Source of the DNA: Eledone cirrhosa
Lineage: Eukaryota
Direction of reading: 5' to 3'
Length of the DNA: 64,000 nt
Assembly (NCBI GenBank): GCA_964016885.1
Contig: OZ024740.1
Location: 241,428,001-241,492,000, forward strand
A program made the translations under genes and the position numbers. A model generated the notes under the pieces. The model was not told the origin of the DNA and searched no databases. It was given only the letters and a program-made list of their open reading frames with translations. Shown here one piece after another: positions 15,480 through 48,232 of the stretch (position 1 is its first letter; every line of letters starts with the position of its first letter).

Positions 15480-15601
15480 CTGATAGCCGAGGACTCGTCC
15501 ACGCATAACTACTCTGGTGTCCCTTACTGTATCCCAGGTAACAACCATCGCAGTTGCATTGTAAGATGTGGCATATACATTAGTTGGGACTCCACGTGGC
15601 A
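15480..15601 (-). CDS. Cntn: Contactin-like exon, first half of FN3 domain 3 (MPRGVPTNVYATSYNATAMVVTWDTVRDTRVVMRGRVLGYQ)
   Basis: TTTCAG acceptor, CAG|GTATTC donor, 122 nt, phase 1-0. P..V.A...NAT...V.W and RG...GYQ motifs. Confidence 0.9.
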
Positions 15602-15726
15602 CTGAAACAAATATCATTAGTATCATTAACTCAAGAGACAAATAATGTATTCACCTATTAAATTTGAAAAAAAAAAAATGAAAAACAACGAATGAAATGT
15701 GAAAACTCTAAACAATATACTGGATA

Positions 15727-18360
15727 TTCCCAATGCAGCATCGCGCATCTCACACAGGCATCATATAACCGTCCTTTCGTACGCAGGGAGAAACCCTTCT
15801 TTGTCAACAGAAGAAGCAGCTCCTTAAACTTCTTCCATCCTGTCCTTATTCTAGATAATATGGCCTCTGAACAGCCCCCAACAATGCTAATCTGGTACCG
15901 GAAGCTATCAACCACTTCTAGAGAACCGACTTGCATTTGAAAAATGTGTCTATCTCTGCGACTTCTACTGTCAAATTTCCCTGTACATCTACTGCACACG
16001 TAGTTTTCCCTACCTGTTAGTTTGCCTGCTATCCCACTACATCTCTTGTGTACCCAAGATCTGTATTGTGTACATTTTATAGAATTTATGCCAGTTCCTT
16101 TTCTACATATCGAACATGGCCATTTACCTGATGGAATCAGAGTTTTGTCCTCTCTTCTACTTATCAGCACTTTTGTCTTAGCTATGTTCACTCTCAGTCC
16201 TCTTGATTCCAACTGGTGTTTCCATAGCCAGAATTTATTCTCTAGCTCCTCTACTAATTCTGCTATAAGAACCAGATCATCAGCATAGCGAAGTTCCCAT
16301 GGGCAGCCAGTCTTAAACTCCTCTGTTATGGCTTGGAGGACTATAATGAACAAGAGCGGGATGAGGACGGAACCCTGATGTACTCCTACTTGTATCTGGA
16401 ATTCCTCACTAAACTCCATTCCTACTCTCACTTTACTGACAGCACCTCTGTGCATAGCTTGCACTATCCTCACAAGCCATTCCTCTACACCTAGTTTTCT
16501 TATGGACCACTAGGTGACAGATCGGGGTACCCTATCAAAGGCCTTTTCTAGGTCAACAAAAGCCAAGTATAGTGGCTTATTCTGCTCTAAGAACCTCTCT
16601 TTTAGTTGTCTCACTAAGAAGAGGGCATCTGTTGTACTTTCCCCAGGAACAAAACCAAACTGCATCTCATCTAATTTGACCCTTTCTTTAATAAGTTGCG
16701 CTAATATTCTCTCTGCCACTTTCATAACCTGATCCATCAGTTTTATGCCCCTATAATTGCTCCTCTCCAGAGAATCCTCTCTACCTTTGTAGCAATTTAT
16801 GAGAATACTGCTGCACCAGTCTTTGGGTATGACTCCGCCATACATAGCCTGATTGACGATCCGTGCAACCAGTTTAGTGCCTACTTCCGATGCCTTCAGC
16901 ATCTCAACAACTATCCCCGGCGGTCAGCGGCCTTACCATTTTTCATTCCTTAATTGCCTTTTGGACCCTTTATTCGTCAATCTCAATAGCTGGTCTCTCT
17001 GTCGGGTCTACTGGGGGTAGTTTCTCTCTCTCCCATTCGTTCTCCACATTCATCAGTCTCTCATGATGACATTTCCAGGCCTCCTTTTTCTGATCATTCG
17101 TAACACTAAGTACACCAGCCTCATTTCAATCACACTTATCTCCAACAACATCCTGATTTACACTGACAATGCGGTTTACGCCTTGCAATGCGGAACACCG
17201 CACGTCACTGATCTTCCCATCGCAGAACATTGGCAAACCTCCTACACTCAGGCTCCCTGCGTGCTAAGTACACCTGACGTCTAGCTTCTCTCTTAGCGGC
17301 TGTGTATCGGTCTCTACTCCCACCATTTTCCCAAGAGTTCCATGTTAGTCTTTTGTTGCTAATGGCCCTATCTACCGTGCTGTTCCACACCCTGGTCACC
17401 CTCTGTCTGTTCGGAGCTCTGCTCCAGCCACAAGTTTCATCAGTAGCCTGCAGTAAGCTGTCACGTAAGCAATTCCAGTTATCATCTATGTTATACGATT
17501 CTAAATCGTCTTCTTTTTCGTCATACACATCTTGAAGAGCTTTTCTCAATTCATATTTTAGTGAAAGGTCTTTTAGCTTCCAGGCCTTCCTGTATGTCTT
17601 ATTTTATCTCTTGCTAACTGAGATATCACTAACGACTAACCTATGCTGTAGGGTACATTCTTCCCCGGGGTATGCCTTAATATTTGACACCATCTGTCTG
17701 TCTCGCTGCCTAACTAACAATAAGTCAATCTTGCTTATGGCTTATGTGCTCTTCCGATTTGTAGGTTTCTTGAAGTTAGTGTTGCAAATGGTTAGTGCAC
17801 TTGCATCACAAAATTCAAGAAGGTTCATTACTTCTTCGTTTCTTGAGCCATAACCGTGCCCACCATGTACCCCAGTGTATCCATCTTGGATCTGTCCAAC
17901 ATGACCATTGAAGTCCCCTGCTGGCATAGCGATGTCCCCGTCCTCTGTCATTGTGGCTGTTTCTAAAAGTTGCTCGTAAAAGCAGTCTTTCTCTTCTTTA
18001 CCTAGGCCCAACTGGGGAGCATGGGCATAGATGATTGTCAGCAGTTTCTTGCCTACTACTAATCTAATCTTAATTATTCTATTACTAACTCAAACTACCT
18101 CTATTGTCTTATCGATCCATCTCTCAGCCAGTAAAGTGCCTACCCCACCTAACTCATTATCATTAACTACCCAGAAAAGCTTAAAAACTAAGATGTTTGC
18201 CTGCGATTAGTCTCGCTGAGGCACCTCTCCATCTCATCTCTTGCACGCAACATACATCCACATGCCTTCTCTCTAGCATCTCCACTATATCTCCAGACCT
18301 ACCTGTTATAGTGCCAACATTAAGTGTGGAAACTCTGAGATGCGATGTCTTCATATTCTT
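15727..18360 (-). mobile_element. RTE-clade LINE, disrupted APE-RT ORF with 3' end missing
   Basis: APE motifs (TLNVGT, CVQEMRW, AGDFNGHVG). RT motifs (NYRGIKL, QFGF, FVDLEKAFDRV, GVHQGSVL, YADDLVL). Cys-rich insert CSIC...WVHKRC. Stops and frameshifts split the ORF. Probable 5' UTR extends to about 18900. Confidence 0.92.
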
Positions 18361-19624
18361 GTCCTTGTTGTGCGATTGCTTGATGACGGTCGAGGGTTCT
18401 CGCACATCACCGCACCAGCCACCCCACTAGCGTGCGCAGCCCTAACATGGTTAGTGTTATTGCTGTTTACGCAGTTACTGTAATACTTATTTGTTGTGAT
18501 CATAGTTTTTGGTATTAATATATACTGGTTGGATGCTCTTCCTAAAACCAGCACCACTTTACAGCATGGACTGGGTGCTTTTATTCGTGCCACCAGCACT
18601 AACGAGGTTGTCTTACTGGATTCAGAGGCCTTCTCCACCTCTCCATTTTACAGCATGGACTGGGTGCTTTTATTCGTGCCACCAACACTAGGGAAGTTGT
18701 CTTACTGGACTTAGCGGACTTCTCTACCCCGCACCAATTTATTCGGAGTGGTAGCTCTCCTAGACGGGTTGCCTACTCCGCTGAGCGGAACTTGGTTTAA
18801 CATGATATGTGCACGAGTGTTTAGCGTACAGTGCGAGGCATGCATACCAGAAGGTGATAGATATAGGATGGGTGGGATAAGAAATGGCCATTTCCTAGCT
18901 TCTGTTATCCTAAACCCGGCTATTCTATATGAGCTATTTTTCGTTACGAATATATATCCGCACATACACAACACACATATATAAACAGCTATATAAATAC
19001 ATTAGTACACATATTTATAAATATAAATAAACATCGAAAGAAGGAAATTGACAATTTTTCACTTATCTTTCTCTACTCCCTAAATTCTAAAATTATAAAT
19101 TAAATTCATCAAATAATAAACCAGTGTGTTTAATAAACGTGCTTCGCGTTATTCAGCTCGCGGTGCGTATGCACTTCCTTGTCTGCCTGGCTGAAACAGT
19201 ACTTAATCCGCTTGAAACCTTCAACGAATGATGCAATTGTTTGTAAAATTCGTGATATATATAAAATAGAGTCTATTCTTCTATATCTAGTCTATAGTTT
19301 CCTACTCGTTCAGATCTCCGATAGATAACATTATTATTTTAAATTGTTTCAATTATACTTTGAAGTATTTTTATGAGAGAGAGCTCTATATTGATGTCTG
19401 AGTTTCCTTTTCTTTTTTTTAACAATATCAAGCAATACTGGAAATACTTCTCTTTTGAAGACTCTATCTCATCCCAATTATGAACCCCCCCCCCCCAAGA
19501 AGAAAATACTGCACGTTTAGAACTTTTTCTTCTCATCATATATCTAATCAGAAAGAACTTATAAAGATTTTTCTATCAAAGACTTTCTTTGAAGAAGCAA
19601 ATGAAAAAATAAGTTATGTCTTAC

Positions 19625-19769
19625 TGTCTTCAGCAGAAAATATTGTATGGATGGTTGAATTCGGTCCTAAACCATAATCGTTAAATGGCTGAATTTTCAC
19701 TTCATATTCTGTATAAAATTGATTTCCTATATATGTTGTGAACGATGACACAGATTCCATTATCGTTTT
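19625..19769 (-). CDS. Cntn: Contactin-like exon, end of FN3 domain 2 (KTIMESVSSFTTYIGNQFYTEYEVKIQPFNDYGLGPNSTIHTIFSAED)
   Basis: TAG acceptor, GTAAGA donor, 145 nt, phase 0-1. YT.YEVK.Q.FN..G.GP.S and the contactin linker I.SAEDMP (completed with the next exon). Confidence 0.92.
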
Positions 19770-21066: not shown

Positions 21067-21156
21067 GTTTGACCAAGAATCACTTTTATTTGATTTGAGT
21101 TTCCAGTAGACATAGTATCCAATTCCAGTACCACTACGTTGCCACGTGTCTAGAGG
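21067..21156 (-). CDS. Cntn: Contactin-like exon, FN3 domain 2 middle (PLDTWQRSGTGIGYYVYWKLKSNKSDSWSN)
   Basis: CAG acceptor, GTAAGT donor, 90 nt, phase 0-0. PL......G.G.GY.V.W motif of contactin FN3-2. Confidence 0.9.
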
Positions 21157-21576: not shown

Positions 21577-22700
21577 ATGTATGTATGTGTGTATGTATGT
21601 ATGTATGTATGTATGTATGTATGTATGTATGTATGTATGTATGTATGTATGTATGTATGTATGTATGTATGTGTGGGTGTGTGTATGTTCTTCCGGTTTT
21701 ATAATTTCATAATTTTTTACCAATAGAGAGAGAGTAGGTTTCTGACATAGATACAAGACTCTCTCATTTGAATTTAAGCATCACCAACTAGGTAGATATC
21801 TATGTATGTCTGCATACTTGCATGTGTGTGCAGGTATGAATGTTATTGTATGGGTGTATGTGTATGTTTTGAGTTATATGTGTGTATGTGCATATGGTTT
21901 GTATGTGTACATGGATTGTACTTGTAATTTCTTAACTAGCGTGTTCTTTCAGATTCTGTGAAGTCCAGCTTCTCAAGATTTGTACTGAGGTAGTTCCTAA
22001 CATATCCCAGTGCTCCAATAATCACAGGTATAGGTCTGAAGGTATAGTCAGGGTGGAGTATTTGCAGATTTATTTCTGCATAGATATTCTCCTCTTTGCT
22101 AATCTTCCACTACTGTGCATGTCTTCTTTTCCCTGTCCCATATCATTATATCTGGTCTGTTATGCTTGCATTTTATTGGGGCTTTTACTGGAACATTCCA
22201 CCAGTATTCTTTCTTATTATGTATAAGTATGTCTTCCACATTGCTGTAGCTTTTAATGCGTTTATTGTCGGGGCTATCTTTTCTACGGATTGTATTGTAC
22301 AGTGTTTTGGTCACTACATCATTACTCATAGGTAGATAGTACCGTGATAACAACTTTGGACACCTGCTTATGACATGGGTGACATCTTCGATGTTAATTC
22401 TGCATTGTCTGCACTTGTTGTCACATGTAGTTGTTTTGCCTGCATCCCTATCTCTTTTGTGAAACAGGTGTTTTGTGTTGATTTTCTGTTCTTGAATTGC
22501 AAAAGCGTATCCTTCAAAGTGGGAGCCAATATAGCGGTTGTTGGTCCAAGATAGAGTCCTTTGCTTACCTCTATTACTCTCACTCTGGAGCTTCCTGGCA
22601 ACATATCAATGCATGATTTTTTGCTGATAAGCATGTAGTTTTTCATCCATGGATTACTGCGGAATTGCTGGGCAATTTCCCTGGGTGTGAGCTTTTGATT
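21577..22700 (-). mobile_element. R4/Dong-like (RLE) LINE, second 5'-truncated, degraded copy with a (TACA)n 3' tail
   Basis: Paralogous to 22701-23820. RYYLPMSNDVV and HNRPDIMIWD RLE motifs. Ends in a long (ATGT)n tract on the + strand. Confidence 0.85.
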
Positions 22701-24950
22701 ATGTATGTATGTATGTTCTTCTGGTTTTATAATTTCACAAAGTTTTACCAATAGAGAGAGAGAGTCGGTTTCTAACATAGACACAAGACTCTCTCATTGG
22801 AATTTACACAACATCAACTAGGTATGTATGCATGCCTGTGTAGATATAGATGTTATTGTATGTGTGGATGTGGATGTTTTGAGTTGTATGTGTGCATGTA
22901 TATATGCTTTGTATCTATCTGTACCTGTGTATATGCAGTTATTAGATGCAACATTTTTGGAATGTTTTACATATTTTTACTGTTCCATTAATGGATTGTA
23001 ATTGTAATTTCCTAACTAGTTGTGTTCTTTCTGTTCCTGTGAAGCCTAGTTTCTCAAGATTTGTATTGAGGCAGTTACTAACATACCCCAGTGCCCCAAT
23101 AATCACAGGCATAAATCTGAAGGTGTAATCAGGGTGGAGTATCTGCAGATTTCTCATCAGTTCTGCATAAATATCCTCCTTTTCACTAATCTTTGAAATT
23201 ATATTGGCATCTGCTGGGCAGCTAATTTCCACTACTGTGCATGCTTTCTCCTCCCTGTCCCATATCATAATATCTGGTCTTTTATGCCTGCATTTTATTG
23301 GGGTTTTTTACTGGAACATTCCACCAGTACCCTTTCATATGTACATGGATGTCTTCCACATTGCTGTAGCTTTTAATGTGTTTATTATCGGGGCTATCTT
23401 TTTTACGAACTGCATTGTACAGTGTTTTGGCTACTACATCATTACTCATAGGTAGATAGTACCGCGATGACATCTTTGGACAGCTGCTGATGACATGGTG
23501 ATATCCTCGATGTTAGTTCTGCAGAGTCTGCACTTGTTATCACATCTAGGTGTTTTGCCTGCATCCCTATCTCTTTTATGAGTCAGGTATTTCGTGTTAA
23601 TCTCCTGTTCTTAGATTGCAAAAGCGTATCCTTCAAAGTGGGAGCAAATATAGCGGTTGTTGGTCCAAGATAGACTACTTTCTTTAACTATATTACTCTC
23701 ACTCTGGAGCTTCCTGGCAACATATCCATGCATGATTTTTTGCTGATAAGCATGCAGTTTTTCATCCCGGGATTCACTGCGATACTGCTGAGCGACTTCC
23801 CTGTGTGTGAGTTTTTGATTATCACACAGGGAATATCTCTCGAGGAGTTCCTTTCCAACTCTCATGATCTTATCTGTTTCATGCAGATAGACTTGCTCGA
23901 GAAACGGGCTCCTACGCTTCGAGGTTCGTAGATGTTGTCGGAGAGATATGATGCGACATTCAAATGTTGTCTGGACTGATGTTAGACCTCTGCCTCCCTG
24001 CTTACGTTTCAAGTAAAGACGGTCTATATCACTGTTGATGTGGAGGTTTCCGGTGTTGTATAGTATTTTTCGAGTTCCAGCATCAACTGCTCGGATTTCG
24101 TCTATCGCCCAATTGAGTATTCCAAACGTTGGTGTTAGGACAGGCACAGCAAACACATTGTTAGCCACTGTTTTGTTTTGCGCAGAGAGTTCCGATGACC
24201 AGACCTTTCTTAATCGGGAATAGTATTCCCTGGTTACGCGTTCTTTATTACAGATACCATTATAGGATATGTGCTCATTTATCCCCAGGTATCTGTAACA
24301 GTTCTCATCAGATATCGGTGAAACAGTTAGGCAATTGACGACAATGTTGCTAGATTGGGTTGTTGTTTTTCCCCGCTTTACAGTCATGTATGAGCATTTA
24401 TCTTGGCCAAACTCCATTCCTATATCCTTTGAGAACGTTGTAACCAGGTCAAGATTTTTCTTCATCCCATCCATGTTTTTGGCATAGAGTTTCAGATCGT
24501 CCACAAAGAAATTATGGGTTAGGTTCGTATTTCTGTCCTCCTGTGAGCCAATGATGTATCCCTCACATTTCTTGAGCAGAAAGGACAAGGGGTTTAATGA
24601 CAAGATGTATAATATCACAGAGAGACTGTCTCCCTGAAATATACCTCTGCAATATTTTATTTTATCAGTGAAAATAGAATCCTCCTTCTCTGTCTTTAAC
24701 CTTAGGATAATAGCCCAAGAAGAAGACAGCCTCTCTATGGCTCTGACAATAATGTCTGGGACTTTAGCAAGTTGGAGGGCCTCTATCATCCAAGAGTGGG
24801 GAACAGAATCGAAAGCTTTCCCTTAGTCCAACCAGACTGTAGCCATATTCCTCCTAAGTTGTTGCACCTCCGACATCGCTGTTTTGTTGATTAGGAGTTG
24901 TTCAGCACATCCCCAAACCCTTTCTTTCCAGCTGCTTGTTCATCTGTGAT
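22701..24950 (-). mobile_element. R4/Dong-like non-LTR retrotransposon (RT, zinc-knuckle remnant, restriction-like endonuclease), 5'-truncated
   Basis: RGIFQGDSLS, FVDDLKLY, IDRLYLKRKQGGRGL, CRLC knuckle, PDIMIWD...VEISCP...EK..Y. (ATGT)n flanks both ends. Confidence 0.9.
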
Positions 24951-27265: not shown

Positions 27266-27360
27266 TGTCCATTGAATTACCAGCGTCTTTACTTTTCCTC
27301 CTCCGCCAGTTACAATTTTAGGAGCTATTAATGGTGGAGAGCCCATGGTGCGTATATAGC
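27266..27360 (-). CDS. Cntn: Contactin-like exon, start of FN3 domain 2 (GYIRTMGSPPLIAPKIVTGGGGKVKTLVIQWT)
   Basis: Long polypyrimidine tract, AAG acceptor, GTAAGA donor, 95 nt, phase 1-0. AP..V.GGGGK...L.I.W is characteristic of contactins. Not in the ORF track. Confidence 0.92.
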
Positions 27361-28403: not shown

Positions 28404-28544
28404 CAGATGGTTGGCTTATATCTCCTACACCGTGGATGTTGGCGGCACGAATACGGAACTGATAGTTTTGATTGGGATACAATCCTGAAATAGTGGTTGA
28501 ATGAAACCCTGCATTGTTTTGTATAATGCTTTTTATAGGGATAT
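28404..28544 (-). CDS. Cntn: Contactin-like exon, second half of FN3 domain 1 (YIPIKSIIQNNAGFHSTTISGLYPNQNYQFRIRAANIHGVGDISQPS)
   Basis: TAG acceptor, GTAATG donor, 141 nt, phase 1-1. FN3 motif GL.P...Y.FRI.A.N..G.G..S.PS. Confidence 0.92.
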
Positions 28545-31642: not shown

Positions 31643-31807
31643 ATTTTGCTTGAATTTTCCAATCTGGTTGGTCAATCGAATGGCTATATATTATATAACG
31701 ACTAATTGGAAAACCATTGTTTGGTGGAGGAACCCATTTCAATTGAAGAGATGACCTTCCAATGCTATTAATATATGTAGCTAAGCCTGATGCTTCTCCT
31801 GGAGGAC
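31643..31807 (-). CDS. Cntn: Contactin-like exon, first half of FN3 domain 1 (GPPGEASGLATYINSIGRSSLQLKWVPPPNNGFPISRYIIYSHSIDQPDWKIQAK)
   Basis: CAG acceptor, GTAAGT donor, 165 nt, phase 1-1. FN3 signature L.W.PP.NNG.PI..Y.I. Confidence 0.92.
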
Positions 31808-31860
31808 CTGGAAGAAGAAAAATCATTTGAATATGATTTCTTCACATAAAACAATATACA

Positions 31861-32014
31861 TACGAGGGTAGGCTGAAAAGTTTCTAGGCTAACCATGAAG
31901 GAGTGATCTAGTGCTGTGAAATCTTGGAAGCAATAATTTCAACTTAATAACTGCATTGTTTCTTTCCATGGGAATATCTTGGTCAGCCTATGAACTTTTC
32001 AGTCGAGCCTCATA
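31861..32014. mobile_element. Tc1/mariner-type MITE
   Basis: TIRs tacgagggtaggctgaaaagtttctaggctaacca and tggtcagcctatgaacttttcagtcgagcctcata, with TA ends. About 50 bp from an exon acceptor. Confidence 0.75.
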
Positions 32015-32550
32015 AAGCAGAATGTATTGTTGAGTAAATCGACCATATTACAATAATCATTTCTTATTAATGACACAATATCCCGCTGAGGTTAACTTTG
32101 CCTTTCATCCTTACGGAGTCGATAAAATAAAGCACCAGTAATGCACTGGGGTCGATTTAATCGACTTTCCCCTCCCCCAAAATTACTGGCCTTGTGCCTA
32201 TATAAGAAACCATTAATGACACAATATCATGGTGTTTGGAAGTGAACAGCAAAATTGAATAAGATTTCATGTCTATCAACTAACATGTTTAATATAAATA
32301 AGACCAAGACTGCTCATCTAACCTACTTACACACAACACACGAATCCCTACCAAAATACCTATTCTTTTGGTTTTGTCACATATAGTGTCTAGTGTCAAT
32401 GTCTGGCATTAACAACCCCGTCCTAAACCTTCCTTTCCAGAGCGTCAACCCTATGGGATTCGCTTCCCGTTCACATTAGACTTGTACTCATACACCATTC
32501 CAATCTCATTACACTCGGTTGGCTTTATTGGTGTGTATTTTGTTGAATTG

Positions 32551-32660
<110 letters not shown>

Positions 32661-32807
32661 GCTACAGTAGAATCAATCTCACTCCATTCTTGTGAATCAT
32701 GGTCGGTGACAGTACCTATCACCAGAGCTGTAGATGGTTGCTAAACTCAAATGTTAAGAAGGATAAACATCATCAAACCTCTTGACCGTGTTACAAACAA
32801 AATTTTA

Positions 32808-32840
<33 letters not shown>

Positions 32841-32841
32841 G

Positions 32842-32924
<83 letters not shown>

Positions 32925-32930
<6 letters not shown>

Positions 32931-33157
32931 TAAAATAACCGATTAAAGTTTAAGCAAAGAATCACTGCTTTCACCCTTAACGGGATGTTCTGAAACTAAC
33001 AGAAGATCCCGTTAAGGGTGAAAGCAGCAATTCTTTGCTTAAACTTTAATCTGTTATTTTAATAAATATTTGCTCTACGGTTCTTATATATTTGATATAT
33101 ATTTATCCTTATCGAGCCCTCTTTGGATTTTAGTCTTCAAATTTATTATTACTACTA
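32925..33157. mobile_element. Short fold-back element in (TA)n (family C). Related copies at 8949-9043, 38877-38975, 40545-40614 and 58705-58840
   Basis: About 65-bp inverted arms around aaactaa. Shares gaaagcagc...ttaaactttaatctgttattttaataaatatttgctctacgg with the other copies. Confidence 0.75.
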
Positions 33158-34727
33158 TATATATATATATATTATTGAGCTGATGAAAGTTGGTTAATTA
33201 AACATATGCCGACTTTTTCGTAAACAGACTTGAAGCACTCAGTGGTTTCTGTTCCTTAGGAATTTCTCTGTAATGCATCGTCCAGAGTTTTAACATAATA
33301 AATAAGGAAAGGTTTATTCGTACATCTTCATTTTATTATCTAATTCATTATACGTATTTCAAAGATGCAATGGTAGTTATTTAATTGTTTCTACTTTTGG
33401 CACAAGGCCAGCAATTACCCAGTACATTACTGGTACTTTATTTTATCGACCTGACATGTTTTCTTCACATGAATTGATATGTAATTTATCCATTGATATG
33501 CTACTGGTTTAATGTGTCGTTACCCTCACTGTCCAGTACTCATGGGACTAGATTCCTTTTGTAGCAGTTCTATTTGGAGTGAGAGACATTATTGTTGCTG
33601 GTGTTGGTGATAGAAAGCTGGCTGGGGTATCAAGTTACCAGAGTGATCGTTTGATTCTTAGAATGGCTTGAAAGTACTGTTCATTTTTTTTTTATTCTGG
33701 ACTTAATTTTATGTACTTAGATTTCAATTGAAGGTATTAATAATTTGATAGTAAGGTTACAATGAATCTATATATTTATATATGCTTTATTACTTAGTTA
33801 ATGGTCGATTTTATATTACTTATGGAAATTTTAACTATATATTCTGCGGAATGTCTTATATATTTTGTGTAAGCATGTATTAAGTATGTCCGAGCGTTTA
33901 CTATTAATTTTGTGGCTACTATTTATAATATGCAAAGTCTCGTTATTACGGATGTCACACTCGGAAGATATAGATCTATTTATATAAATAAAAGCATATG
34001 AAAGTTTTAACCAAGAAAGAAAGTATTGTACTTAGTTATTTTTTAACGTCTAAAACAGTTCCGACAGGGCTGTGTTAGACCATTTATCAACTCTTTTAAA
34101 GGTGAGGCGATGGTTATACTATCTTTCCTTAAAGCTTGTAGAGGTTGCACCAATATATCTATATGTTTTAATACTCGTTGTTACTCTACATTCATAAACA
34201 ATGTTTCGATCAATTATTTTGCATAGAACATATGTTAGGGACTCAGCAATTGCAATTAGTCTCGTTACTGTTCGTTGTTTCTTCCCCGTGTCTGTGTGTC
34301 TGTTGGTTTGTCTCATTTGTCTTTATGATGTTTTGTCTATTAATCGCGTTGTTATTTATCCCATCAGTGTTTTCTTGCTATTGTGTGTTTTTTTCTTTAT
34401 TGCTAATTTCTATTATTAATCTTCGCTATGTTTTGTGCTATGTTTTTGGTTGTTGAGTAAGAGAGTTTAATCCTGTGTCGATTAAATATTCCAATGCACA
34501 TGTGTGATTTTGGAAACCATTTATCTAACGCGTTAAAGAAAAGTCTAGCTATGTTGTTTTGTTGTCCCAAGGAGTGGGGTAGGTTATACCATATAACGGA
34601 ACGGGATGTCACCATCTTATTTAATTTTATGATGGTAGTTCAATGAGATGTATTGAATGCCGAATTTATCCTGTCTCAATTGTTTTGGATGTGGGTATTC
34701 CTATTATTATTATTAACAGTAATTTAG

Positions 34728-34948
34728 GGCGGTGGATTGGCAGAATCGGTAGAGCCTCGAATACCCTGCTTCGCGGCAGAGAGTTACGTCCCTTTACGTT
34801 CTGAGTTCAAATCCCGTCGAGGTTAACTTTGCCTTTCATCCTTACGGGATCAATAAAATAAAGTACCAGTCATGCACTGATGTCGATTTAATTAACTTTC
34901 CCCACCCCCAAAATTGGTGACCTTGTGCCTAATTCAGAAACCATTATT
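34728..34948 (+). mobile_element. Full-length SINE family 1 copy. Further copies at about 13750, 26845, 31480, 32080, 44628, 57683 and 58400
   Basis: Head ggcggtggattggcagaatcggtagagc with A box, B box gttcaaatcc, body gcctttcatccttacggg...aaaataaagtaccag, (att)n tail. Confidence 0.9.
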
Positions 34949-35154
34949 ATCAGTATTTTCAAGCCATTCTAAGAAACAGACAACCAGTCTGGTAACTTGA
35001 TACCCCAGCCGGCTTTCAATCACCAACACCAGCAACAATACTATCTCCCACTCCCAATAGAACTACTTCAATAGGAATTTAGTCATATGAGTACTGGACA
35101 GTGAGGTTAACGACACGTTAAACCAGTAGCATATCAATAGAAAAATACAGCTCG

Positions 35155-35304
35155 ATTCATCTGAAGAAAACATGTCAGGTGGTTATCCATACGTGGTTAG
35201 TAAAATAAAGTACCAGTAATACACTGGGAAAATTGCTGGCCTTGTGCCAAAAGTAGAAACCATTATATAACTACCATTGCATCTTTGAAATACGTATAAT
35301 GATT
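35155..35304 (+). ncRNA. Hammerhead ribozyme with a SINE fragment in loop II
   Basis: Stem I attcat/atgatt. CTGAAGA 35161-35167. Stem II aaacatg/catcttt. GAAA 35287-35290. Palindromic stem III atacgtat. AUA site. Confidence 0.65.
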
Positions 35305-35451
35305 TAGATAATAAAATGAAGATTTACAAGATTTACAGATAACTATGTGTATACTCTGTATACTCTGGGAATGTATCTTACATTGCCCATGGAGTACGCT
35401 GAGATACAATTGGTCCCGGCATTGATAAATATGGTGGGTCCGTCAACTCCT

Positions 35452-35513
<62 letters not shown>

Positions 35514-35570
35514 CTAAATAATTCTGTAGCCTACATAGAGCACTCTCCTTTCCTTTACCTTTCCTACGGA

Positions 35571-36405
<835 letters not shown>

Positions 36406-37402
36406 GTTAGTCCTTCGTATAAAGACAAGATATCTCATGATGCAATGCCATGTCTCTAGATACCATACCGAATAGTTAAATAACTAAAAGATTTAAGAAG
36501 TTTACACATATTCATCAAAATTAGTATTTGTAAGCAGTAATCTTTTAACAAGTGCACCTCTAAAAAGAATTGCAAGATATGCACCACAAACTAACATATC
36601 AACTTCAATTTATATACTGTGTATGGTGGCAAGAAGTATCGTGCGTAAACCTCCCCGAAATTTAGAAAGGAGAGAAAGTTTAGAGGACTTTAGCTACAGC
36701 GAAACTAAATATACCCGTGTTTTATTAACATGCACTAGATAAACACTAGATAACACGGCACAATGTGACAGAATCAGGTTGGAATTTAAATCCAACTAGG
36801 GTAGATTTTGTCACTCATCTTTTCGGAATAAATGCAATAAATATTAGATTCGAAATGCAAACACACGTAACTAAATATTACAAAGCGATTTCCCCAGCAT
36901 TCCACGGATTTTGCTTGCTGCTCATCAACCGGTTATTAGAGATAGTATAGCTTAAGATTTGTCTAAAATTCAGGTATTCTGAGGTGATAGAGGAGTTGCT
37001 GCGCTTCAACAACCAATTTAGTTTAAATACAACGAAGTGATATAATTGACAATGATATTGACCTGTAAAAGTTTAATTAAGTTCTTAATGAAAATATGTC
37101 AACTTCATGTAATTTCAAACTTAATATGTAATATATCGAATTTCAAATTCTCATATTAGTAAAAGCTGAGAACAGCAAATATACGTAATATTATTTAGGA
37201 AGAAGACATCAAGCAGAAAATGAGAGTCATAATTTAGTTAAAGTCATGCGTACTATAAAGCTAAAGAGATCAGAACACTATTCAGAACACAGCATTCTCT
37301 GAAGTCGAGATATATTCCATCCCAGCTTGCCTCTATCAGATGGTTCATTAACGTTAGTGGGTTAATATACTCGACATAATTTACATGCAAATCAGATATA
37401 TG

Positions 37403-37955
37403 TAATAATTGTTTCTACTTTTGGCACAACGAGAGTAAATCGATTAAATGGACATCAGTGCATTATTGGTACTTAATTTTATTAATCCCCGGAAAGATAA
37501 AAGGTAAAATGAACCTCGGTGGGATTTGAACTCAGAACATACTTTATTTTATTGGCCCCGTAAGGATGAAAGGCAAAGTAAAACCTTGGCGTTATTTGAA
37601 CTCATTATTACAAATCCCGCCGAGGTTGACTTTGCCTTTCATCCTTACGGGGTCGATAAAATAAAGTACCAGTAATGCACTGGTTAATTGCTGGCCTTGT
37701 GCCTAAAGAAGAAACAATTATTACAAGATGTAATTATTACAAGATGCAATTATTACAAGATGTAATAATTGTTTCTACATTTGGCACAAGGCCAGTAATT
37801 ATCCCAGTGTATTACTGGTACTTTATTTTATCGACCCCGTAAGGATGAAAGACAAAGTTAACCTCGGCGGGATTTGAACTCAGACCATAAAGAGCCGTAA
37901 CTCTATGCTGCAAAGTATGGCGTCCGACCCTATACCGATACTGCCAATCCACCGT
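37403..37955. mobile_element. Cluster of SINE family 1 copies including a tail-to-tail inverted pair (37610-37720 + and 37765-37955 -)
   Basis: Body motif on both strands. A 16-bp unit (ttattacaagatg(t/c)aa) is repeated about three times between the tails. Confidence 0.85.
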
Positions 37956-38305
37956 GAAATGTACAGCGTGGTGAACTCAGCGCCAAAATCTATATAATCA
38001 TTATAAATTACTTAACATGACATAAATATAACTTGTAAAAAAGGTATTTCTACACTTACTATTCAACAAAACACTGCACTGTTCTAAAGAGTGCGATCGT
38101 ATGCTTTCAATATCTGCTCCAAAGAACGGCAAGATAAAAGGATCATTTAAGAATTCAGACTAAATTCATTTAAGAAAACCATATTTATTTTATTATACGG
38201 TGTATTAGGACAATGGGATTGATGAGTTAATATCTGTATCCAAATACGATAAACAAATACAACAACAGCAATAAATTAAGGCGACAAAAAAATTGTTATA
38301 CTCAT

Positions 38306-38432
38306 CTTTAACTTGAAGAAATGCACCTGCTTTAATTATGTTGATAGGACTTTTAACAGTGCAAATATAATACCCAGAATGTACAAAATTGGCATCCCTT
38401 ATTACGAGGCCACCAACTGGATCTTCTGTAGA
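38306..38432 (-). CDS. Cntn: Contactin-like gene, exon encoding the C-terminal half of the last Ig domain (STEDPVGGLVIRDANFVHSGYYICTVKSPINIIKAGAFLQVK)
   Basis: Polypyrimidine tract and TAG acceptor. Ig motif L.I......SG.Y.C and G-strand AFLQV. 127 nt, phase 0 to 1, joining the next exon to give VKGPPG. The donor is non-canonical (G|ATGAGT). Confidence 0.85.
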
Positions 38433-46278: not shown

Positions 46279-48232
46279 CAACATAATGTCCCTCATCAAC
46301 AATCAGAGAAGAGCTGAAGAGGCCTGGGCCATTGAGAAGATCAAACTCAATCCCAAAGTGTTCTTTTCATTTGCAAAAAAACACAAAATCACTGGCTCTA
46401 CTGTTGGCCCTCTAATTGATGAAAATGGCACTCTTCAAGACAATGCTAAAACCATGGGTGAGATACTGCAGAAACAATACTGCTCTGTTTTCAGCAATCC
46501 TGATATGGCCGATCTGGGCTGTATCGGCGATGTTACTCCCCATTACACCTTATCGGACATAACGTTTGGCGCCCCTGATGTCTTGGCGGCAATAAAGGAA
46601 ATCAAGCATAATTCAGCAGTAGGTCCCGATAGGTTCCCTGCTTGTGTCTTGAAGGCGTGTCAACACCAACTTGCATCTCCTCTTGCCAATCTGTGGCGGA
46701 ACTCACTGGATGCTGGATATGTGCCAGAAAACATTCTATCCCAGTCTGTTGTCCCAGTTTTCAAAAAGGGAAACAAATCCCTTGCCGTGAATTACCGTCC
46801 AATCTCACTCACCTCTCATATCATTAAGGTATTTGAGCGAGTGGTGAGATCGCGAATGACCCACTTCCTTGAGAGTAACAATATGCTGAACTCCAACCAG
46901 CATGGATTCCGTAATGGAAGGGATTGCCTGACGCAGCTACTGCATCACTTTGATGACATTTTGAGAGCCTTGGGAGAGGGTTCCAACACTGATGTTATCT
47001 ACCTTGATTTCAGCAAGGCCTTTGACAGGGTTGATCATAACATTCTACTGAGAAAGCTGTCCAATATTGGTGTCACTGGAAAGCTGCTGCAGTGGATCAA
47101 GAGCTTCCTGTCAAACAGAACCCAACATGTTGTAGTTGAGGGAGTCAAATCAAGCCCAGCCAAAGTCAGTAGTGGGGTCCCACAAGGCACTGTGTTGGGC
47201 CCACTTCTCTTCATCATCTATATTAATGACATCACTGACATCATCAAACACAGCAACATTAACATTTTCGCTGATGATTCCAAGCTCCAAAAGGTCATCA
47301 ATGGCGTGGATGACCGGATAAGCCTTCAGTCAGACCTACTGGCTGTTACCCAATGGGCAGAAAAGAACAACATGTTACTGAACGAAGACAAATTCGAACT
47401 GATCCACTTTGGAAAAGAGGATGCTCTGGAACTCCCGTACTCCCTTCCCTCCGGGGAAACTCTCGTGGCATCTAACAACATCAGAGACTTGGGAGTAACC
47501 GTGGACAGCAACATAAGCTGGACCACGCATATAAGCAGCAAAGTTGACATGGCCCGCAGAATGTGTTCCTGGATCCTCAGAACCTTCCAGTCGAGAGATT
47601 CCCGCACCATTATCCTTCTCTTCTCTACTTTCGCCCGACCACACCTTGAATACTGTTGTCCACTGTGGTCTCCCCACACGAAACAAAGTATCATGAAACT
47701 TGAAGCTCCTCAAAGGGCAATCACGAAAAAGATAGATGGCATGTCAGACCTTGACTACTGGGGTCGATTAGAAAACCTGAAACTTTACTCACTCCAACGT
47801 CGCCGTGAGCGTTATATTATCTGCATGATGTGGAAAATGTTCCATCATCACTGCCCAAATGATGTTGGCATCGCCTTCAAGATACACCCAAGGCTTGGGC
47901 CCCGTGCTATCCGTCCCATTCAAAAATCTAAATCGCAACTCATAACAACAATACGGCACAATTATTTCACCTCAATCGGCCCTGCTCTCTTCAACATCAC
48001 ACCAGGACACGTCAAAACAGAAACTGACCACACAAAATTCAAGAAGTCTTTGGACAAATTCCTCCAAGTAATCCCGGACAAACCACCCACACCCGGATAT
48101 GTCTCCGCAAACAGTAATTCTCTTCTCGAATGGGCCATGGTGCCCAAATCCTGAATTGAAAGACTTCGCCAGGTGGTGCTATTAAGTTAGACATGGCCTG
48201 GGCCAATACTGGCCAAAACATTTCAAAGTTAT
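46279..48232 (+). mobile_element. Young 5'-truncated CR1-like LINE with an uninterrupted RT frame (46286-48154, 622 aa), inserted in (TA)n
   Basis: NYRPISLTS, QHGFR, YLDFSKAFD, SGVPQGTVLGP, IFADD, LYSLQRRRERY. No stops. The N-terminal IYIY part of the 803-aa ORF is microsatellite read-through. Confidence 0.95.

Follow-up and report, generated by a model that had tools for sequence, protein, structure and literature searches.

The window analysed here, a 64,000-nucleotide stretch of Eledone cirrhosa DNA, carries on its minus strand several exons of an octopod contactin gene, whose 19 mapped exons extend over about 113 kb and join into 1,057 codons with no internal stop. The encoded protein is about 70% identical to CAI9722028.1, XP_029635341.1 and XP_014768745.1, which are named contactin or contactin-like, and the orthologues from three Octopus species keep the full Ig-FN3 junction. 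The Octopus orthologue was found by HMMER search; homologue searches with single exons of the gene gave no match. Domain order is Ig followed by FN3, with a Pfam fn3 match, and a PDB sequence search with the gene returned contactin-1, -2 and -3 as best matches. For the N-terminal signal and lectin region (orthologue residues 1-171), one weak match was all that the 164 kb examined contained. The exon at the centre of this study encodes the C-terminal half of the last Ig domain and has contactin-1 residues 547-583 as its best PDB sequence match (E 3.5e-4). The exons in the window and the intron between the Ig and FN3 parts are as follows.

38306..38432, minus strand: contactin exon of 127 nt (phase 0 to 1) for the C-terminal half of the last Ig domain
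31808..38305, minus strand: AT-AG intron at the Ig-FN3 junction, 6,498 nt, phase 1
31643..31807, minus strand: first FN3 exon (GPPGEASG...), with canonical AG acceptor and GT donor
28404..28544, minus strand: FN3 exon, canonical
27266..27360, minus strand: contactin exon, canonical
21067..21156, minus strand: contactin exon, canonical
19625..19769, minus strand: contactin exon, canonical
15480..15601, minus strand: FN3 exon, canonical

Judged by eye from translations, the introns of the gene also hold decayed reverse-transcriptase-like frames of retrotransposons (15661-18650, 21940-24822 and 46300-48150), and an inverted repeat of about 60 bases was seen by eye at 32940-33070, within the AT-AG intron. 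Four contactin paralogues with shared intron positions lie elsewhere in the genome, at C3:260.54-260.57 Mb, C6:6.55-6.65 Mb, C8:1.17-1.19 Mb and C8:7.89-7.93 Mb, the one at C8:7.9 Mb being closest to the Argonauta protein P0159. The contactin query also matched, weakly, Ig-like exons arrayed in tandem every 2,010 bases or so at C1:44.77-44.81 Mb.

The AT donor at the Ig-FN3 junction

On the minus strand, the exon running from 38432 to 38306 ends in ...CAA GTT AAA G, and the intron then opens with ATGAGTAT, its first base (+1) being the A at 38305. At 31807 the acceptor reads ttccag/GTCCTCCA, and the next exon opens with GT CCT CCA. A sequence-only reading of this DNA had placed the exon end at 38306 because that end restores the conserved Ig-FN3 junction, and the joined frame bears this out, reading AFLQVKGPPG against AFLSVKGAPG and SFLSVKGPPG in orthologues. 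Its description of an ATGAGT-type intron start with A at +1 holds in the sequence as well, and, as it had noted, GT stands at all six other donors of the window in the spliced alignment. In this alignment GT, GC or AT donors were allowed and AT was penalised by 8; the AT donor was nevertheless chosen with a margin of 21. Since the exon is 127 nt long and runs from phase 0 to phase 1, its skipping would shift the frame. No second genomic copy of the exon was found in a genome search, no GT-bearing copy of it was seen within the AT-AG intron, and a 19-mer spanning the AT donor is unique in the genome. The donor and the sites considered beside it are:

38298..38308, minus strand: non-canonical donor AAG/ATGAGTAT, with the +1 A at 38305
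38320..38330, minus strand: in-frame cryptic donor CAG/GTGCATTT, use of which would remove GAFLQVK
38205..38207, minus strand: in-frame stop, inside the repeat end described below, that is met on intron retention or use of a downstream donor

The same gene has a second non-GT donor, a GC site (CAG/GCATGACT) at about 241,505,585 on C1, which lies outside the window (window-relative 77586) and is of middling strength, 46 of the 73 control donors outscoring it. Non-GT donors thus number 2 of 18 in this gene versus one doubtful case in 70 paralogue junctions.

U12-type donors follow the consensus RTATCCT and are paired with a TCCTTAAC-like branch site. The donor ATGAGTAT is unlike RTATCCT, in agreement with the sequence-only reading, and no TCCTTAAC-like motif matched in the last 80 nt of the intron, so that a U12-type intron was rejected. 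A U2-type AT-AC intron was rejected too: the aligned acceptor is AG, and the sole AC from -30 to +45 sits 29 nt inside the exon. Dependence on a variant U1 was set aside given the canonical 5' end of all 30 U1 genes read, out of 42 matches. Tandem arrays of U1 snRNA genes, repeating every 2,674 bases or so, lie at C2:180.97-181.00 Mb and on C1128.

The A in DNA reads and its ancestry

Whether the A is present in raw DNA had been singled out for checking. Contigs from all three runs read A at 38305 (X1, X2 and X3, with depths of 3.85, 9.08 and 5.51), with neither G nor any other letter, and an assembly error is therefore unlikely. The three runs derive from one sample of one animal and may be the assembly's own source; hence they argue against a consensus error, yet represent a single animal. 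Three RAD-seq runs from other animals (X4-X6) gave 0 reads over 38258-38352. The animal seems to be heterozygous just inside the intron, where a structural difference of at least 383 bases at 38248 is accompanied by a T/C site at 38097.

38248, no strand assigned: inferred haplotype breakpoint; X1 and X2 contigs match only from here upward

The X1 and X2 contigs carry 383-384 unmatched bases before 38248, and at 38097 they have C in place of the assembly's allele; X3 agrees with the assembly in both respects. Because X1 and X2 favour the other haplotype nearby and yet read A, the A is probably on both chromosomes, as judged from run contigs that are unphased across 38248-38305 and retain one allele per site.

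All four paralogues (C3, C6 and two on C8) have GT at the same phase-1 position, from which it follows that the A at +1 is derived; their homologous donors are of ordinary strength. The protein was compared before and after the junction: identity to the Octopus sinensis protein is 443/605 before versus 307/450 after it (p 0.086), and lineage-specific changes show no downstream excess, with counts of 33:28 versus 28:26 (p 0.85) with an Argonauta outgroup and 24:27 versus 28:27 (p 0.70) with a paralogue as outgroup, whose reconstruction had two stops that were masked. On the genomic sequence, then, the AT-AG intron is real and derived, is probably homozygous, and interrupts an intact gene at a junction on which the frame depends.

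Donor strength and alternative splice routes

Of 88 junctions in five contactin genes, 73 with GT donors reached an alignment margin of 8 or more and served as controls; 12 low-margin GT and three non-GT junctions were dropped. Scored over nine positions, leaving out +1 and +2, AAG/ATGAGTAT outscores 71 of the 73 canonical donors, two being as high. Its U1 duplex is computed at -5.9 kcal/mol with A at +1, a value reached by 50/73 controls, and at -12.6 kcal/mol with G at +1, matched by a single control. The cryptic in-frame donor GCAG/GTGCAT after 38327, 21 nt upstream of the AT donor, had been named as an alternative by the sequence-only reading. It is present and in frame as stated; as a competitor it is weaker than 71/73 canonical donors on the local matrix, with a U1 duplex of -6.8 kcal/mol (44/73 controls as strong). 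Other routes were tried and rejected: the GT at +5 breaks the frame, and a phase-1 GT after 38060 lies beyond the in-frame stop. A truncated Ig-only isoform made by intronic polyadenylation (stop at 38207, then AATAAA) was also set aside, its stop lying in the repeat end and AATAAA being common in AT-rich DNA.

A predicted hairpin over the donor

Folding predicts an uninterrupted stem of 16 bp between 38307-38292 and 38266-38251, in which the +1 A stands opposite U38253.

38292..38307, minus strand: predicted stem, arm on the 5' side, covering -2 to +14 of the donor
38251..38266, minus strand: 3' arm of the predicted stem, candidate editing-complementary sequence in a U-rich tract, in the part common to all three runs' contigs
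38239..38245, minus strand: 3' side of an outer helix of 7 bp, formed with exon positions 38317-38311, probably in the assembly haplotype only
38204..38239, plus strand: 36-bp end of a high-copy dispersed repeat, holding the complement 38221-38230

The sequence-only reading had proposed a different partner, the complement at 38221-38230. This complement does exist (TTAACTCATC at 38230-38221) and is preferred in one of four folding windows, the 16-bp stem being preferred in the other three; it is, though, part of the repeat end, which X1 and X2 do not carry there, so the duplex with 38221-38230 is probably not the relevant one. In the folding model the partner 38266-38251 is both the better duplex and the one closer to the donor. 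The repeat end lies left of the inferred breakpoint at 38248 and seems to be haplotype-specific at this position, whereas the 16-bp stem falls in the part common to the contigs of all three runs. The repeat itself is young and of very high copy number, its copies sharing one sharp end and being cut at varying lengths on the other side; 300 candidates were found for the repeat end, of which 40 were scored, with a summed run depth of about 15,000 and 36/36 identity to the five copies compared in full. An origin of the donor from this repeat end or from a palindromic element on C6 was rejected, the matches being short (12 nt for the latter). The palindromic element, about 170 bases between TA runs at C6 ~6,596,600-6,596,800, lies in a paralogue intron, is predicted to form a long hairpin and holds AAAGATGAGTAT, apparently by chance.

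Support from structure for the stem appears real but moderate, and it depends on the measure. By helix length over +1, set to A throughout, the site stands apart: no control donor exceeds 11 bp, 2 of 1,000 shuffles reach 16 bp, none of the 73 control introns does so when swapped in, and random partners do in 2 of 5,000 cases, with the proviso that this statistic was picked after the fold had been seen. In none of the 73 control donors does the shuffle p fall to 0.01 or below. For pairing across the donor core, 3/73 controls do as well as the AT site, and for pairing probability at +1, 11/73 do; random GAT sites lie in helices of at least 16 bp in 43 of 2,417 instances. The energy-based tests speak only modestly for the stem, the best-duplex energy being matched by 8/73 controls within 150 nt, 25/73 within 500 nt and 38/73 within 1,500 nt, and the 85-nt hairpin region (-14.7 kcal/mol, z -1.77) by 9 of 200 shuffles. 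When the shared haplotype part alone was folded, the probability of the A-U pair came to 0.98, 0.01, 0.83 and 0.95 in four folding windows, and at 15 C the 16-bp stem was preferred in only one of three. The stem contains six G-U pairs and one G-C pair, places the +1 A only 2 bp from its end, and is modelled at -11.4 kcal/mol with A at +1 versus -8.2 with G. Other adenosines of the stem sit in better ADAR contexts than the +1 A.

Discussion

The editing idea withstands every genomic test that we ran and is the likeliest single reading. We tentatively favour it, at slightly less than even odds: ADAR may turn the AT into IT and thereby restore the ancestral, frame-essential donor, a putative event proposed from sequence and folding models. 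According to this proposal, the G-to-A change at the first intron base would have been tolerated because the donor lies in a predicted hairpin where ADAR could make inosine, and inosine at +1 would be read as G by the normal U2-type spliceosome, a property of inosine that is given as established in PMC4176328, as far as its accessible text goes. Editing would create the donor and at the same time loosen the stem that hides it, the A-U pair becoming I-U; the strong flanking match to U1 would then capture edited molecules, and the amount of full-length protein would follow ADAR activity. A stronger version, in which in-frame splicing of this neural adhesion gene requires that ADAR has first edited the gene's own donor within a local hairpin, so that editing acts as an on-switch for the full-length protein and is fixed in the lineage, strikes us as possible but more doubtful. 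Deaminase domains of the A_deamin type (ADAR/ADAT) match at four places in the genome.

The main weakness of the editing reading is the 5' G neighbour of the +1 A. The sequence-only reading had rightly held it against editing: the G is here paired with U, which is a slow context for human ADAR1 and ADAR2 in the accessible part of PMC9638939. The neighbour context is thus unfavourable, but any donor with G at -1 shares it, so that it is not strictly defining. According to the available text of one reporter study with guide RNAs, splicing was not rescued by editing that a guide directed to the neighbourhood of a donor, and donor-adjacent variants were hard to rescue (10.64898/2026.07.30.741163). 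From octopus, the RNA-seq survey of Zolotarov et al. reports in its accessible text that editing very rarely alters splice sites, and its supplement lists no non-canonical junctions in the species tested, 0 of 69,088 in O. bimaculoides (PMC9699675); this zero suggests a strict mapping filter. Within the literature covered, the text of mostly open-access papers, we found neither a description of the donor of this gene nor a case of an edited donor in a cephalopod.

By analogy, the contactin donor most likely acts like an editing-created donor, as a putative member of that class. An author correction to the coleoid study of restorative editing is listed as PMC8249491. That study, in its accessible text, describes restorative, harm-permitting editing for coleoid codons (PMC6881472); the contactin site resembles it in that a genomic G-to-A is tolerated and G would be restored in RNA, with the difference that editing is here putative and concerns an essential splice nucleotide instead of a codon. 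Editing-created AT-to-IT donors are known from human GPR81, where the donor lies in an Alu pair in the 3' UTR and is edited at 57% (PMC526178, accessible text), and from C14orf37, NUP210 and CRYZL1, three human AT-AG sites with A-to-G changes in nascent RNA, other AT-AG sites showing none in the part of PMC4176328 available. The contactin intron shares with these the genomic AT at +1 and an AG acceptor, and the C14orf37 donor is U2-like, as is ours. It differs from them in several respects, since the human sites are alternative ones at which editing was observed, with NUP210 and CRYZL1 being U12-like, whereas the contactin site corresponds to an ancestral GT donor that is needed for the frame, has a short, local and predicted hairpin, and is edited only putatively. 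The accessible text of PMC1557818 describes U12-type AT-AG introns in ACTR10 and NUP210, that of ACTR10 being a lineage-specific change from GT; the intron ends are the same, but the contactin donor is of the U1 type and comes without a U12 branch motif. In ADAR2 (ADARB1), self-editing converts AA to AI and makes an acceptor, as listed in the available parts of PMC4176328 and PMC9699675. A splice dinucleotide would be created by editing in both cases, that of ADAR2 belonging to an alternative, autoregulatory acceptor.

A serious rival, and the chief one to editing, is direct use of the unedited AT by the U2-type spliceosome as an AT-AG intron, with the hairpin being incidental; it was absent from the alternatives of the earlier reading, may coexist with partial editing, and is in our estimation rather unlikely. 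The donor is in the top 3% outside +1/+2, its nine other positions pairing near-perfectly with U1, and the intron has a T fraction of 0.56 at +9 to +58, matched by 2/73 controls, with a U-rich tract. That the same gene also has a GC donor points the same way. In PMC6280755, as far as its text was accessible, the near-identical AT donor CAG/ATAAGTAT, also highly complementary to U1, was spliced accurately at +1 when the HeLa reporter carried an exonic enhancer, and human AT-AG sites lacking editing evidence exist according to the available text of PMC4176328. The reporter AT sites, however, depended on enhancers, were outcompeted by GT sites of moderate strength and could move to +5 (PMC6280755, same part), which here would break the frame; that system is a human one with mostly minor junctions, and neither hairpin nor editing is considered in the accessible part of the report. 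Moreover, at -11.4 kcal/mol the predicted stem exceeds the unedited U1 duplex (-5.9) in strength and would keep the site hidden, so that the hairpin would be a handicap under direct AT use.

We regard it as improbable that the gene has become dispensable beside its four paralogues and that the A makes this allele null or leaky, with mis-splicing or intron retention running into the stop at 38207. Donor +1 changes are usually damaging (PMC6280755, accessible text), four paralogous contactins do exist, and the gene has two non-GT donors among 18; the slightly lower downstream identity to the Octopus sinensis protein and the coverage of the site by one animal only would fit as well. Against this, the A is apparently carried by two haplotypes that differ locally, unlike a fresh mutation, the 1,057 codons contain no stop or frameshift and show no rate excess, and a random lesion would not be expected in a top-3% donor within the longest helix of the set.

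Still less probable is use of the in-frame GT 21 nt upstream, giving a protein without GAFLQVK, a region that we take to be the final strand of the Ig fold. In favour of this site are its canonical sequence and a U1 duplex slightly stronger than the one the unedited AT forms (-6.8 versus -5.9 kcal/mol); yet the site ranks below 71/73 canonical donors, and the residues that would be lost are conserved (AFLQVK versus AFLSVK and AFLNVK) and align with contactin-1 where its last Ig domain ends. An assembly error, or a heterozygous variant whose G allele was masked by contig simplification, is very improbable. In its favour, the contigs keep one allele per site, differ between runs at 38097 and leave 38248-38305 unphased; against it, those of all three runs read A, X1 and X2 included, although these two side with the other haplotype at 38097 and at 38248.

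The purpose of the massive A-to-I editing in octopus is debated, and no editing-made junctions are reported in the accessible text of the octopus survey (PMC9699675). If editing of the contactin donor is true, an editing-dependent, frame-essential donor would be a clean harm-permitting case outside codons, and the dose of contactin would be tied to ADAR activity. More AT-AG and GT-AA introns would then be hidden in coleoid genomes as seeming annotation errors. It would be informative as well if the bare AT donor works instead: U2-type AT-AG introns are rare in nature, and the contactin one would lie at a junction essential for the frame.
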